Positions 9,962 through 48,098 of a stretch of 64,000 nt of DNA are shown here, piece after piece; within the stretch, counting starts at the first letter, position 1; each line of letters begins with the position of its first letter. A program made the translations under genes and the position numbers. Source of the DNA: Girardia tigrina (Eukaryota). The stretch covers positions 18,114 through 82,113 of the forward strand of contig MQRK01232790.1 of NCBI GenBank assembly GCA_001938485.1, read 5' to 3'. The notes below the pieces were generated by a model, which ran no database searches, was not told the DNA's origin, and saw nothing but the letters and a program-made list of their open reading frames with translations.

Positions 9962-10300
9962 GAGTGTATCAGTAGGCAAGTAATCTGGTGGCGCCTATCT
10001 TATCTCCAGGTATACATGGCCATTGGCTCAATGGAGCTCATCCGCCCTTAGCCAGGTTTTCTTTTTCATCCTGTTGGGTGTTCTCACATCCTCTTCACTT
10101 AGGTTACCCTGGGTGAGGGGTCGCAAACCATCCGACCATAGGACAGATAGAATACGTTTACATGGTTCCTGTTTCATGTATGCATGCCTGACCTGTGTAT
10201 TCCTAATCTGTCACCCATATAAATACTAACTCGGCCGCAGCTTTCTTAACTTCGGCGATTTGTCGGGATCCGGTGTACTTAACCACGGCCATTGATTACA
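9962..10300 (-). mobile_element. 5S rRNA-derived SINE (SINE3-type) or 5S pseudogene with attached body
   Basis: Minus-strand 10300-10183 reads ACACCGGATCCCGACAAATCGCCGAAGTTAAG..GGCCGAGTTAGTATTTATATGGGTGAC..GGAATAC, co-linear with metazoan 5S rRNA including the A and C box regions. There is no oligo-T terminator, and about 220 nt of GC-richer body follows. Confidence 0.8.
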
Positions 10301-39720: not shown

Positions 39721-41987
39721 CTGAAGTTATAATACCAAAGATATATGCATACATATCTGAGCAAACAATAACGTGTTACCTACATATTTTACTATTGGGT
39801 TCTTGATCAAAAGACGTTGTCATCAACACAAAATTTTATTTCTACCACAATTTTAGTTTTTTTAAACAAATATTTCCGAGGAACTTTTGCACTTTCTTTT
39901 TACACAGACCATTATAAATAAGAATTGATATAAATAATAAATATGGTTATTGTATTTTTTACGAATTAAAATTCTATACTTTTTTTAATAAAAGATTATA
40001 AAGTGAATTAAAATTTTGTCACAAAGATTTTGTTTCGTCTTTTATTAAATTTCAATTTTATTGTAACATTAAATTTACCTATTTCTCAATTAAATTTCCC
40101 AATTCTATACAATAGCATTTTCCGTTTCGTTTTCATAATAGTTTTAAAAATTACATTGGATTTAATAATATTTTGAAAATAGAATTTAAAATCGCAATTT
40201 CATTTAATTTAACATTTTTTAAATTACCTCTTTTTTACATAAAAAATAAAATTATATTTCGATTAATAATTACGTTTTCCAAAATAAAATTAAAGTTGCA
40301 TTTTCATTTAAATCGATGTAATAGTTTTACAATTATATTTTTATTCCAATTAAAATTTCAAAAAAAAATAACAATTACATTTTTAATTTACTTTGATTTA
40401 AAAGTTACAAAAAATAGTTTAGTTTACTTTCATTTCGCAAATAAAATATTAAACTTATATTACTTTTGATTTTATTTCAATTAAATATTTTCATCAAATT
40501 TGAAATTAACTTTTACTTTATAATAAATTTTTACATTAATCTTTTAATAAACGTACCGTAAAATTTATTTTATTTCTTACATAAATTATTTTACATTTAA
40601 TTTCTGAAAATCTTATCTTAACATATCTGTAACAATATTTTACGGGATGTAATTGTTTAATTATTAATTTGATAAGATTGTACATTCAGAAATTTTATGA
40701 ACTCAACAATGCTCCCAACAGTTACTAAAACATAGCAATGCAATAAAAACACTACAAGTGTTATAAAAACGTTTTTTGAAAGCAAGAAGAAAAAACAAGA
40801 TGTTAATTATAATTATTAATTTACCGCAGTTATAATTACCTAGTTCACAAACTATTATTTCTGTTCAATAATTTCTTGAGATTTATTCACTGTTTGGCCC
40901 ATCGAAAGAAAGGGGCACCATTCGGAATCCAAATCTATTTCCCATATACCAATGGTACATCCCTAATGATCAGGAGATCCCTGAATAAACCCTAGAAATA
41001 ATGAAAACAAAATAATTAAATAAAGAAAAATTAAATAAAATCACTTTGTTTTCCAAAATGACTGACATCATCAGCTAACGCGACCTGAAAAAACAGAGAA
41101 TTAATCATAAAGCACTATTTCGAAATTACTACTCCACGAGTGTCCAGTAATGCAGAAATCCGAATACGATCCATTCGCAATCGAAAGAAGCATGTACACA
41201 ACTACGCAAACCGCGTGCGTTGTCCAAGAATCTCGGGTGGTTGATTGGCCTAGATTTCGGACTTCAATACGGACATCAATTTCATTAGATCTTCTCTTAC
41301 TTCTCAACAACGATAACTGTAATTTCGATCCTTACTCTTACGAAAAGTAGACACTCATAACAAATAATAAAAATGAGTAAAATTCAAACGGAAAAACAAG
41401 AACTCTCACACTCATTAGATGCAGGAATTTAACAAAGCTAACCCAATAGCGAGAGCACTTACAAACGCAACTCCACATTGTGTCGAGATAATACAACAGA
41501 ATTATACGAAAACCATCTTAGCGAAAGTAATCCTACGAAACAGGGTATAGAATTAAAATCAGCGGAACCGTTTTTATTTTTTATATAGTTTTACTTTTAT
41601 GTAATACCCCAATTCATTCGCATTATGTAATGTAATAAGTTTATAATAATTATAAATTATAAATAAATTATAAACTACAGTTATACATGATTATAAACTA
41701 TAAATTGTAATTACGATTATGATAAATTATAAACTTGTAATGTAATAGATGTAACTCGAGTGAAAATGTTAGTTCCATCGAGATATATAGGTCGTTAATC
41801 ATATAAATAATAAACAAAAGTTTAAAAAATAAAATGATAATTAAAAATGAAAACTTCAAAAGTTAAACGAAATATTAAAATAAAATAAAATACAATTCCA
41901 TTAAAATAACTATATTATAAACTTATTATATAAATATTTTAAAAATAACGACAATCAATTTTTAAAAGTCAAAAAATTTTCGTCAAA

Positions 41988-42045
41988 ATATATTGTGATT
42001 AATTTCGACGGATCGACCGTCATCATCAGACTGAATTAACAATGA
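41988..42045 (-). ncRNA. Minimal hammerhead ribozyme in the 3' pseudo-LTR
   Basis: CTGATGA-T-GACGG-tcgat-CCGTC-GAAA-ttaATC, with palindromic stem III ATTAAT. Confidence 0.8.
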
Positions 42046-44253
42046 TATACTCGCGTTTATATATCAAAGCAATGTTTATGTAATCATTATGTCATTTAAA
42101 TTATGAAAATACTTTCAATAAAGTTGAAGAGGAGGATGTTTGGACATTGATTTTAGTATCAAAAGATTTGATCAACAATGCTTCACTCATCACCCTCTCC
42201 CAGTAATTATCAAATTGTGAACACAAAATCTTAAAATTACTTACATCAACTTTACTATTCAAATAGTTCTTCTTATGTTGAGCAATATTGCTATCACTTT
42301 CCCTGCCATTATGTTCCTGAATCCGTTTACAGAGATGACGACAAGTCTCTCCGATGTATGTGGCGTCACATCCATTACATTTATATTGATAAACTAAATT
42401 GGAACATAACCCAGTTGAGTGATAGATTTACTAATAAACAAACTTCCTATCTTACATGATCTAGATACAATTTTTAAATTTAATAAATTATTTTCATCAT
42501 GTTTCAAAATAGAGTTTTTAAATTTCCTGAAACCCTCAGAGTAGGGAACAGTCAAAACAAAACCAATATTATCATAATTATTATTTATCTGATTTTTGTT
42601 TTTGTCGCTATTTATTGTATTTGATTTTTCATTTTCATTTNNNNNNNNNNNNNNNNNNNNNNNAGTTTCACGAGTTAATTTTTCAACTATCGATTTGGAA
42701 TATCCATTTTTATGAAGTAAATTCATTAACTTATCAATACTTTCATTACATTTAGCGTACGTAGACGAAAGTGTCCAAGATCAATAGATCAAACCTTTAA
42801 TCATATTTCTTTTATATTTAGGTTCAAAAAAGCTGTTAGGGGTTGTATATAACCCTGTATCAGTTTTCTTTCTATAGATCCCAGTTTAAAAATGGTAGTT
42901 TTTCGCTCTTTCTATCAAAAGATCTAAGAATGGTAAAACATTATTGTTTTCATATTCTACCGTGAATTTTATATTTGAATGTAAGGAATTATTATAATTT
43001 AAGAAAGGCTCAACTTGTTCTTTATTATCAAACAATGGAAGAATTTCATCTACATAACGTTTATAAATTTTAGGTTTAATACCATCATATAGACTTATTT
43101 TCTCTTCAGTCTGAGAAAGAAATATCGAAGTTAAAGTTGGAGCTAATGGAGAACCCATAGATACCCCATCAACCTGTTGATACCAATCATTATTAAATAA
43201 AAATCGTAAATTCGATGTTGCAAAATATAACAATTCCCGAAAAGCAATCTCATCAACTAAATGGTGTTCATTAACATTATTTCTCCATAATTGCTAAATT
43301 TGCTCCATATTTGTCTATAGTTTCATGTAAAAGAACATTTGTAAACAAATTTACAACGTCAAACGATACCATGAAATTATTATTTACGTCAAGATTAGAA
43401 ATTACCTCAACAAACTCAAAACTATCTCTACAAGTGAATTCAGAAGAAAGTAAAGGNNNNNNNNNTGAATCTAGATATTTAGCGATTCTGTACTGGGAAG
43501 TGTTAATCATTGAAATTACTGGTCTCATAGGAATTCCGTCTTTATGAACTTTTGGGAGACCATAAAGCTTAGCAGGTTGAGAACCAACCGAACGCAATGC
43601 AGATTCAAGATCACTATTTAAAGTACCAAAATAACGAGTTTCTTTAATAAGCAAGAAAGAGTTTCATCATCTTTGATAGGTGGTAATTTCCCATTTTTTC
43701 TAAACTTATCAATTTTAATAAATTGATGGCCACTTAAAACAATTTCTACTTTATTAATATAATCAGTACTGTTTAATACAATGAAACCATTTCCTTTATC
43801 AAACTTACATATTTTAACATCTTTCTTTCTTAAGTTTTTAAAATTGAATAATCTTTAATATTTTGTTCCTTATTTTTTTCAATATAATTAAGCGTGTTTT
43901 TATTTAACACGTTTTTTAAAAAATTCAAAATTTAGTTTATTAACTGAAGCAGCATTTGCGTGATAATATCTAAACGTATTTTCTACCTTTGATTTAAATT
44001 GAAATTCATTAAATCCCATTCTAATACTATGCTTAGGACCAAATTTTAATATAGCTATTTCTTCATTTGATAATGAACTATCACTTAAATTTAAAATTGT
44101 ATTTTGTAAATAAAATTTAAATGCACCAAAAATTCTCCGTAAATTATTTAATTTTTTATTTTGTGTCACAATTTTATCGTTACATGCTTTTTTACTAATA
44201 TTTTCAGAAATAGCAAAACATAAATGAAAACAATCAACATTACTTACATTATA

Positions 44254-45563
44254 CAGTGCGTTCAAAAAGTAACTGTGCACCTGCAATTTCAAAACAAGAA
44301 CGAAATCCTGTGTTCTAAAAATCAATAACAAAATATTTTGAATAGTCAATTTTATGTTAATTTAATTTAACCGTCTCTTAATTTATTAAAAATAACAAGA
44401 AAAGAGTCACAACAACTGCTGGAAATGCCCACCAGGTTCGTGAATACAAACGTTAATTCGACGTTTCAAGTTTTCGAACACTCGATGAATTTCCTGTTGG
44501 GTGATGGCTTCAATTTGGTGTAGGATGTTATCAAGTAGGTCTTGCAAAGCTTGTGGTTTGTTTCGGTAAACCTTTTGCTTTATCGCTCTTGGCGGCCAAA
44601 TTCCTTTGGAAATGATTCTCTTCGGGAAGATCTCATTCAAAAAACGAAGCGAAATGTTTGCGGTATGTGCTGTTGATGTTATGGTTTCAGTAAAAAAGAT
44701 GGGACCAATTACACGCCTCCTGGACATGGCACACCATACTCCAACTTTCAAGGAATGCAGAGGCTTCTCAACAAATTCATGCAAATTTTCACTGGACCAA
44801 ACTCGAGAATTTTGGCTACTCACATATCCAGACAAATGAAACCACGCTTCATCGGAAAAAAAGTCTTGTTGAGCATGTCATCCTCATTCAGATTTTCCTT
44901 GAACCAATGACAAGACTGGAGTCGCTTTTCAAAGTCTGTGTCTTTCAACTCATATTGACAAGTAACACGATATGGATATAAGCTTAAATTTTTCCTCACG
45001 GCGGCATGTGCAGTTCCAACGGATACACTCACTTCTTGAGATAAACGGCGCATTGACTTTGTTGGACTCTGGCTCATGGCTNTCGAAATAACATTGACTT
45101 TTTGCTCCGTTAAAATCGTTGGTCGACCTGAGCGGGAGGCATCATGAACGGATCCAGTTTCTCTGAACTTGTTCACTAACGCTCGAACTGCATTTCGATG
45201 AGGTATTACTGTTGCGGAAAACTTTTCGGCAAATTTTTCCTTCACTGCTTCTGTGTATTCATCATTCGCACGAAAGACATGTTCAATCAATAATATTCTC
45301 TCCTCCGTTGACAAAACCGGAATTAACTTCGCAATAAATTAACTTTCGTCAATGATTAGATTGAATATCAAAATGATATATTTTTTTAAAAAATTTAAAA
45401 CGCTCAGTGTCAAGGTCAAAGTGTGTAGGTATGTTTTTTGTTCACGAATCTATTTCATAGTTCGATTTCATAGAAATTTGCATTTAAAAAGTCTGCTACA
45501 ACGCTGATTATCTAAAAATAAACCAGACAATGAAAGGTGCACAGTGACTTTCTGAACGCACTG
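44254..45563 (-). mobile_element. Tc1/mariner (maT/DD37D-like) element nested in the Penelope ORF
   Basis: 29-bp TIRs CAGTGCGTTCA(A/G)AAAGT(A/C)ACTGTGCACCT and TA TSD. Transposase fragments at 45314-44407. Excision restores the Penelope frame (...TALY|NVSNV...). Confidence 0.95.
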
Positions 45564-45899
45564 TACAAAGCGGTATTGATCAAAGCTAATTGTTTCGTCA
45601 AATTATCCAATCTTTTATTTTCAACTTCCAGAATTCTTCTAAGTATTCTTCTGTGAATTCTTCTGACATCTTCTGATGACAAACATTCGTGTAATTTCGA
45701 TTTGAAAATGAACGATGGGATAATGTGTTCATCAATACAAGTTTCTAAAAACTGAATATCTAATTGTTTTCGATTTACCGATTCCAAAATTTTGATCTGT
45801 CTTCTAAAAATCTTGATTGCAATAGGATAAGATTCATATAAATATTTAAAAAATGACGACAATGAATTTTTAAAAGTCAAAAAATTTTTGTCAAAATAT

Positions 45900-45952
45900 A
45901 TTTTGATTAATTTCGACGGATCAACCGTCATCATCAGACTGAATTAACAATG
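45900..45952 (-). ncRNA. Minimal hammerhead ribozyme in the 5' pseudo-LTR, overlapping the ORF start
   Basis: CTGATGA-T-GACGG-ttgat-CCGTC-GAAA-ttaATC. ATGATG at 45934 lies inside the core. Confidence 0.8.
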
Positions 45953-46015
45953 ATATACTCGCGTTTAAATATCAAAGCAATGTTTATGTATTAATTAACT
46001 TAATTAATATTAAAT

Positions 46016-47030
46016 ATAACTCGTGAAACTGTCGATAAATTAATTAAATCGGAAAATGAAAATGAAAAATCAAATACAATAAATAGCGACAAAAACAAAA
46101 ATCAGATAAATAATAATTATGATAATATTGGTTTTGTTTTGACTGTTCCCTACTCTGAGGGTTTCAGGAAATTTAAAAACTCTATTTTGAAACATGATGA
46201 AAATAATTTATTAAATTTAAAAATTGTATCTAGATCATGTAAGATAGGAAGTTTGTTTATTAGTAAATCTATCACTCAACTGGGTTATGTTCCAATTTAG
46301 TTTATCAATATAAATGTAATGGATGTGACGCCACATACATCGGAGAGACTTGTCGTCATCTCTGTAAACGGATTCAGGAACATAATGGCAGGGAAAGTGA
46401 TAGCAATATTGCTCAACATAAGAAGAACTATTTGAATAGTAAAGTTGATGTAAGTAATTTTAAGATTTTGTGTTCACAATTTGATAATTACTGGGAGAGG
46501 GTGATGTGTGAAGCATTGTTGATCAAATCTTTTGATACTAAAATCAATGTCCAAACATCCTCCTCTTCAACTTTATTGAAAGTATTTTCATGATTTAAAT
46601 GACATAATGATTACGTAAACATTGCTTTGATATATAAACGCGAGTATATCATTGTTAATTCAATCTGATGATGACGGTTGATCCGTCGAAATTAATCACA
46701 ATATATTTTGACGAAAATTTTTTGACTTTTAAAAATTCAGTGTCGTTATTTTTTATATATTTATATAATAAGTTTATAATATAGTTATTTTAATGGAATT
46801 GTATTTTATTTTATTTTAATATTTCGTTTAACTTTTGAAGTTTTCATTTTTAATTATCATTTTATTTTTTTAAACTTTTTTTATTATTTATATGATTAAC
46901 GACCTATATATCTCGATGGAACTAACATTTTCACTCGAGTTACATCTATTACATTACAAGTTTATAATTTATCATAATCGTAATTACAATTTATAGTTTA
47001 TAATCATTTATAACTGTAGTTTATAATTTA
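46016..47030 (+). mobile_element. Inverted 5'-truncated copy of the Penelope 3' end (GIY-YIG, pLTR, tail)
   Basis: Near-identical reverse complement of 41665-42677. Confidence 0.93.
46650..46706 (+). ncRNA. Minimal hammerhead ribozyme in the inverted copy
   Basis: CTGATGA 46665-71, stem II GACGG/CCGTC, GAAA 46688-91, ATC cleavage triplet ending at 46697. Confidence 0.8.
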
Positions 47031-47786: not shown

Positions 47787-48098
47787 AACCTTAAGCTAAA
47801 CCCCGAATCCTAACCCAAACCGAAACAAAAAACTGATCATAACCCCTAACTCTAATCGTAACCTTAATCCCTAACTTTAACCCTAAACCGTAACTGTAAC
47901 TCACTAACCTAACACTCACACCTCAGCTAATCCTTACAACTAACTCCAACTCTAACCATAAATATAACCTTAATCTTAAACCCAAATCCCAACCCCTAAC
48001 ACTAAATCTAACCTAAATCCTACCCATAACCCACCATACCCTTATCGTAACCCAGAAAGCCTAAGCTTTAATTATATCCCTAACCTTAAACCTAACCA
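47787..48098 (+). repeat. Degenerate (CCCTAA)n-like interstitial tract
   Basis: About 300 bp of taaccc/ctaacc/taatcc variants with strong C-strand bias. Confidence 0.75.

Follow-up and report, generated by a model that had tools for sequence, protein, structure and literature searches.

The start codon of a Penelope retrotransposon lies inside its own hammerhead

A 64,000-nucleotide (nt) stretch of Girardia tigrina DNA (GenBank assembly GCA_001938485.1, contig MQRK01232790.1, positions 18,114 to 82,113 of the forward strand; hereafter the window) carries on its minus strand a dead Penelope/Poseidon retrotransposon copy with a nested Tc1 element. The start codon of its single open reading frame (ORF) lies within a predicted minimal hammerhead ribozyme, 5' of the predicted cut, and this arrangement is widespread in the genome: the AUG precedes the cut in 10/10 family copies, in 39/45 sister copies and in 59/60 open-frame records, at three positions of the ribozyme. 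In our judgement the chances are about even that active relatives use their uncut RNA for both translation and reverse transcription, and that the cut is an off-switch removing cap and start codon.

Read on the minus strand from 45937, the sequence is CTG ATG ATG ACG GTT GAT CCG TCG AAA TTA ATC, in frame with the element ORF, and an in-frame stop stands four codons 5' of the ORF start. This confirms the claim of a preliminary description of this DNA that the start codons lie within the hammerhead core. The hammerhead itself (45905..45939, minus strand; minimal type I) has C3 at 45937, A9 at 45931, an extra U at 45930, a 5-bp stem II, GAAA at 45914-45911 and the helix III palindrome ATTAAT; its second stem I pair is mutated. 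The cut is predicted at 45905|45904 – after codon 10 counted from the first ATG, where the preliminary description had put it – and the geometry agrees with the further claim that cleavage would part the start codon from the ORF.

Two in-frame ATGs stand in tandem (45929..45934, minus strand), 27-30 nt 5' of the predicted cut: A6-U7-G8 (45934) and A9-U-G10.1 (45931), the latter at 27 nt and with an A at -3. Sequence comparison indicates that the second is the likely conserved start. A9-U-G10.1 is ATG in all ten other family copies that cover codon 1, and a search with the N-terminus of the sister families gave 70 loci, 45 of them with a recognisable core; among these 45 5' copies the A9 ATG is in frame in 39, frameshifted in three and point-mutated in three. 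The conservation of an AUG in the core that the preliminary description looked for is found in these counts. The first ATG is not general, because 42 of 86 distinct motifs (drawn from loci collected by several searches, and not a random sample) have A, C or G at N7; an ORF start at that codon (MMTVDPSKLI), as originally read, does not hold as a family feature.

The hammerhead as a motif

The minimal hammerhead is real as a motif, beyond chance, and by sequence is a predicted ribozyme. The minimal pattern has 39,674 matches in the genome compared to 274 for a reversed control, and the cores in the window match CUGANGA, an extra nucleotide, the G10.1-C11.1 pair, GAAA and UH. Among the 86 distinct motifs the first two stem I pairs are kept in 74 (controls in which the partner was slid by 1-3 nt gave 2, 0 and 36); in 79 helix III forms a palindrome, of which four kinds occur. 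The stems covary across families, which argues that the ribozyme fold is under selection.

The copies in the window are poor representatives. Stem I is 2 bp in this family, in keeping with the weak pairing by the core noted in the preliminary description, and the 5' copy and the inverted copy each miss one pair; the 3' hammerhead (41997..42031, minus strand; C3 at 42029, predicted cut 41997|41996) is the sole one of three with both. Helix III of this family is all A-U, with a computed duplex energy of -0.2 kcal/mol. An Rfam scan of the window did not detect a hammerhead, and folding of the monomer gave no hammerhead fold (z about 0), as expected of a dimer-type minimal motif.

Two further observations concern these motifs. 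The third core in the window, at 46665 on the plus strand in the inverted partial copy, is absent from the preliminary description. The genome holds some 39,700 minimal hammerheads, 96% of them with U as the extra nucleotide, which exceeds the single-genome counts in PMC4209133 (this and the other publications cited by such identifiers were available in part, and statements on them refer to that part).

Position of the AUG across families and organisms

Sixty records of this genome were compared in which the frame was fixed by homology and open from the core onward; broken-frame records were dropped uncounted, and some records of the 17-nt class are 3' tails. They cover five stem II spacings (13, 16, 17, 18 and 20), the 19-nt class with its ACGCGT palindrome being left out. 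The first in-frame ATG lies 5' of the cut in 59 of the 60. For spacings 16, 17 and 20 the start is at A9 in 51/52 records; for spacing 13 it lies 8 nt after A9, in the 3' strand of stem II (3/3 records), and for spacing 18 it lies 23 nt after A9, in the helix III palindrome ACAUGU (5/5 records). Records of spacings 13 and 18 retain the A9 AUG even though it is not in frame there.

Such a pattern admits the possibility, which we advance tentatively, that selection in the Penelope clade of this host holds the start 5' of the cut, that a change of frame leads to a new AUG in stem II or helix III, and that the hammerhead would be a protein-triggered self-destruct switch on the element's own translation. 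The same data bear on a rather unlikely alternative, namely that the overlap is incidental: the core CUGANGAUG would yield an AUG for ribozyme reasons, lineages with a shrunken 5' untranslated region would use the nearest in-frame AUG, and the ribozyme would rarely cut in vivo, or would only trim long read-through RNAs, with no real effect on translation. That frame-shifting spacings regain an AUG 5' of the cut (3/3 13-nt and 5/5 18-nt records) speaks against incidental overlap, even if these records represent only about two independent events; so does the covariation of the stems, which implies a selected fold. The extra base points the other way. It is T in 38,130 of the 39,674 motifs genome-wide (96%), and persists in families whose A9 AUG, being out of frame, begins a 13-codon upstream ORF; the idea that the extra U exists because of the start codon was thus rejected as a full account. 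CAUG is, moreover, among the few palindromes used in helix III. Two published results fit incidental overlap as well: minimal hammerheads are weakly active in vitro (PMC4209133), and for PAc (Poseidon_Ac), an element of Anolis carolinensis, no RNA ends are found at the cut (PMC11167929).

In the 18-nt class (L036, L045, L055, L189 and L191) the upstream ORF opened by the out-of-frame A9 AUG is conserved and overlaps the true start in helix III; it could dampen translation.

Elements from other organisms mostly differ. Among 80 metagenome loci 32 carry the motif, 25 of the 32 with U as the extra base. The ORF start could be placed, on an unspliced reading, in 12 foreign elements (L293, at a contig edge, and the ambiguous L257 and L298 were excluded): three start in the helix III palindrome, nine start 10 to about 245 nt past the cut, and none starts at A9. 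The starts span 5 nt before the cut to about 245 nt beyond it, again what incidental overlap would lead one to expect. In the alignment of Fig. S3 of PMC4209133, counted by eye, an AUG is present in 10/56 rows and an extra U in 12/56. That the foreign elements and the 2014 alignment are mostly without an AUG in the ribozyme argues, at the level of sequence, that the arrangement is a lineage trait. At the metagenome locus L298 (4745-4790 and 5135-5180) an ATG stands directly 3' of the predicted cut in both ribozyme copies and is a candidate ORF start.

A distant N-terminus query found no further family in this genome, and an N-terminal query for longer proteins found none. The hammerhead peptide signature occurs in the N-termini of 10 of 71 full-length homologues, below the 28% background; two signature-bearing homologues, P0045 and P0060, lack the zinc linker, which argues against a Neptune identity. 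Open frames of 1177, 1911 and 816 codons stand at Penelope N-terminal matches (L188, G000 C255192; L220, G000 C230034; and G000 C239624, respectively); gaps may have inflated them, or they may be fusions with other elements or near-intact ORFs.

Methionines downstream of the cut

The preliminary description stated that no in-frame Met follows for some 200 codons. This stands for the copy in the window, where codon 202 (44019) is the first to encode a further Met, and falls for the family: codon 100 counted from the A9 ATG (45632..45634, minus strand) is ATT here and ATG in 28/28 other copies covering it (29 aligned), and codon 101 is ATG in 13/28. The ATG base at 45632 is read at full depth in all four sequence runs compared; the runs with this family consist of contigs whose RNA status is uncertain, and their depth is 3'-heavy, as genomic copy number is. 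The missing Met is a private mutation of this copy. Sister families have Met18 (8 codons past the cut, 13 records), Met42, or Met98/102. In-frame AUGs past the cut, which the preliminary description held to count against its proposal, are to this extent present.

These codons suggest a further reading, in which the 3' product of the cut is translated cap-free from a later Met (Met100; Met18 or Met42 in sisters) into a shorter protein, so that cleavage would change the protein and not act as an off-switch. The constancy of Met100 (28/28), the frequency of Met101 (13/28) and Met98/102 in one sister family agree with it, as does the cleavage-dependent translation reported for viral hammerheads (PMC13725137). 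We nevertheless think it very improbable: in this copy the stretch from the cut to codon 100 contains four out-of-frame ATGs, the codon-100 position is not Met in more distant homologues, and the 18-nt class is without a common early Met. A start at Met100 would, furthermore, lose conserved residues around alignment positions 46-85, and the cut would therefore still end full-length translation.

Genomic copies as a record of cleavage

If cut linear RNA were the usual template, then insertions should begin or end at the cut. In one subfamily 864 copies are intact across it, while in seven matches (six distinct) the 5' junction falls within the last 7 nt ahead of the cut, and in no case clearly on it; a wider test of 5' junctions gave 23 matches, mostly internal indels and none at the cut. 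Suggestive 5' truncations near the cut in L007, L010 and L014 came to nothing, as counts gave no pile-up. For 3' ends, 11 matches (3-5 distinct events, with no matched control) are candidates for ending at the cut. The 23 distinct family cores all run past +30, with six ending at +41 to +67 and nine at +87 to +107. In the window the 3' tail (41928..41996, minus strand) holds about 70 nt of ORF start sequence past the cut site, and the template was therefore continuous across it. Since copies cross the cut intact, templates were either uncut or religated. Our analysis favors uncut templates on the strength of the PAc data, in which insertion in vitro proceeds mainly from uncut RNA (PMC11167929).

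Religation is central to the model of the preliminary description, according to which both ribozymes would cut and the 2596-nt monomer would be ligated into a circle, restoring the AUG and providing for cap-free translation as well as for a template of more-than-unit cDNA. The geometry fits: the distance from core to core (45937 to 42029) is 2596 nt once the Tc1 is left out, in line with the monomer of about 2.6 kb that had been proposed. Genomic copies that cross the cut intact, with tails, 5' pseudo-long terminal repeats (pLTRs) of varied length and one long tandem (L015), are as a circle would give, circular templates have been proposed for these elements (PMC4209133), and hammerheads can promote cap-independent translation in RNA viruses (PMC13725137). 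In the viral case, however, the start codon lies 3' of the cut. PAc RNA with a dead ribozyme inserts normally in vitro (PMC11167929), and Naiad elements, being without hammerheads, form the same tandem structures (PMC8557442). The premise of no downstream Met fails (Met100, 28/28), and most foreign loci have their AUG past the cut. We therefore hold the circle model to be improbable, and translation from a circle is, on the sequences at hand, unsupported. A comparison of the 5' and 3' pLTRs was dropped as a test for circles: the two inverted arms differ at 12/992 positions, eight of these in one high-copy 165-nt stretch, and the differences point to assembly mixing or conversion.

Splicing was also considered. 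The AG before the core gave 21 genomic matches with altered upstream bases, none of them a spliced pLTR junction indicative of a spliced leader; a spliced joint is absent among the nine joints listed plus 15 of 116 in the run contigs, which cannot prove absence.

One set of copies stands apart. In three contigs (L129:1-480, L130:1-530 and L131; G000 C27166, C45977 and C169216) an intronless piece of the ribosomal protein L6/L9 family is fused in frame, at the same junction, to a 5'-truncated sister Penelope ORF. The piece has about 63% G+C in an A+T-rich genome and matches Pfam Ribosomal_L6 with E 4e-25. The fusion looks as if template switching had captured a foreign mRNA; contamination and chimeric assembly are the alternatives.

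Cleavage as a proposed off-switch

The off-switch that we prefer takes its geometry, conservation and intact genomic copies from the present data, and the protein dependence of the cut and the uncut substrate from the PAc work; the other steps we infer. The uncut RNA would act both as mRNA and as template. Initiation by ribosomes at the core AUG and the folded ribozyme would be mutually exclusive. Element protein, as it accumulates, would attach to the 5' end of the ORF and bring together two palindromic helix III strands, leading to the cut. Removal of cap and AUG would then stop full-length translation – a negative feedback – and the cut product would mostly be lost, rather than circularized and translated.

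Several points weigh against the off-switch. The family is represented here by sequence, and the run contigs are of uncertain RNA status. Only 3/12 foreign elements have the AUG in the ribozyme; the other nine start 10-245 nt past the cut, so that Penelope-like elements in general do not depend on losing the AUG. The extra U of A9-U-G is kept out of frame and is present in 25/32 foreign motifs, and the ribozyme may simply bring the AUG with it. In one sister family Met18 stands just 8 codons past the cut. An all-A-U helix III (-0.2 kcal/mol) combined with a 2-bp stem I means that the ribozyme may barely cut. Finally, a religated circle would leave intact junctions too.

The element and its surroundings

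Motifs and domain order fit an endonuclease-containing (EN+) Penelope-like element (PLE) of the Penelope/Poseidon clade. The ORF (42101..45931, minus strand) is single, broken by the Tc1, frameshifts and stops, and runs from a helical N-terminal region through a DKG motif (FDKG at about 43790) and reverse transcriptase (RT) to a C-terminal GIY-YIG endonuclease. Pfam finds, in that order, an RT core fragment (42886..43293, minus strand; RVT_1, E 3.3e-05, below the curated cut-off) and a GIY-YIG fragment (42101..42427, minus strand; E 5.6e-06, above the cut-off). The latter has CxxC plus two His (CCHH type). The linker holds no Cys cluster, and the CX2-5CxxC zinc-finger linker is thus absent. 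Among EN+ PLEs, DKG and CCHH without the CX2-5CxxC linker define Penelope/Poseidon (PMC8557442), and the placement rests on the match to this definition. DKG, CCHH and the C-terminal endonuclease rule out the Hydra, Neptune, Nematis and Naiad clades, which are marked by DKT/DKA, a zinc-finger linker, CCHH loss or an N-terminal endonuclease; a 2.6-kb unit with an RT-endonuclease ORF does not fit a retrozyme or viroid-like class, which is marked by a short non-coding tandem unit.

As in EN+ Penelope-like elements, pLTRs, an inverted 5'-truncated copy adjoining the 5' pLTR, and tails are all present. The 5' pLTR remnant, together with the first ~95 nt of the ORF (45836..46007, minus strand), is a direct repeat of 41928-42099 (92% identical). 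The inverted copy (46054..46766, plus strand) comprises the GIY-YIG end, the third hammerhead (C3 at 46665) and a tail. That the copy is dead, as previously described, is borne out by the Tc1 insertion, by single-base and larger indels near 43910, 43830, 43630, 43300 and 42410, and by in-frame stops. The nested element is a Tc1/mariner-type DNA transposon of 1310 bp (44254..45563, minus strand) with terminal inverted repeats and a TA duplication; its empty-site junction is present in all four sequence runs compared.

A ~264-nt non-element block (41664..41927) recurs as an inverted repeat at 46767-47030, at full length at these two places of the assembly only. These flanks suggest fold-back copying of target DNA at insertion, or a read-through template uncut at the 3' ribozyme. 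Elsewhere in the window, 10190-10287 (minus strand) matches 5S rRNA weakly, at 28.5 bits and under the family threshold, and may be a 5S pseudogene or the head of a short interspersed element, and 47836-48092 holds degenerate repeats rich in (T)AACCC-like units, of telomere-like composition.

Significance

The element, the ribozyme, the overlap with the start codon and the idea of a circle are all already in print. The addition made here is comparative: three AUG positions in the ribozyme of one genome, all before the cut; a minority pattern elsewhere; and almost no copies ending at the cut. Searches of the openly accessible literature turned up no report of Penelope hammerheads gating translation. 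The off-switch bears on what hammerheads do in Penelope-like elements: if true, it would give the hammerhead a simple and testable function, feedback on translation, with natural variant pairs at hand. If the overlap is incidental, then the window holds an ordinary dead transposon.

Comparison with known systems

The nearest published case is PAc (Frangieh et al. 2024, PMC11167929), in which the start codon lies within the hammerhead and the cut falls 26 nt downstream. The PAc ribozyme cuts only upon addition of the element protein, and catalytic mutants insert normally in vitro. The start position is the same as here, and the 3' ends of our family (+41 to +107) resemble the two internal RT starts plus tail of PAc; the window copy differs in its extra in-frame ATG earlier in the core, its 6-nt helix III palindrome and its being dead. 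The available text of PMC11167929, together with a term search, states the geometry, but discussion of translational control or circles was not found there.

The circle model for minimal hammerheads of PLEs is that of Cervera and De la Pena (2014, PMC4209133). The metazoan hammerheads described there share with ours type I topology, a short stem I, an extra nucleotide between 9 and 10.1, the G10.1-C11.1 pair, a palindromic helix III and thousands of dispersed copies; they differ in the extra U, present in 12/56 rows compared to 96% of motifs in this genome. Start codons were not seen discussed in the available part of that paper. Penelope of Drosophila virilis (Schostak 2008, PMC2377424; Cervera 2014) likewise has a pLTR hammerhead near the 5' end of the transcript, and the AG before the core here is matched by the end of the D. 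virilis intron; there, however, the extra nucleotide is C and a 75-nt intron is spliced, while no spliced form was found here among the genomic matches and the run joints listed. The pLTR acts as a promoter (PMC2377424; PMC6765202). Naiad elements lack canonical hammerheads yet have the same pLTR and tandem structures (PMC8557442). The type I hammerheads of linear RNA viruses, which promote cap-independent translation (PMC13725137), resemble ours in being small and placed by a start codon, with the order reversed: the viral start codon follows the cut, which aids translation, whereas here the cut would remove the start.

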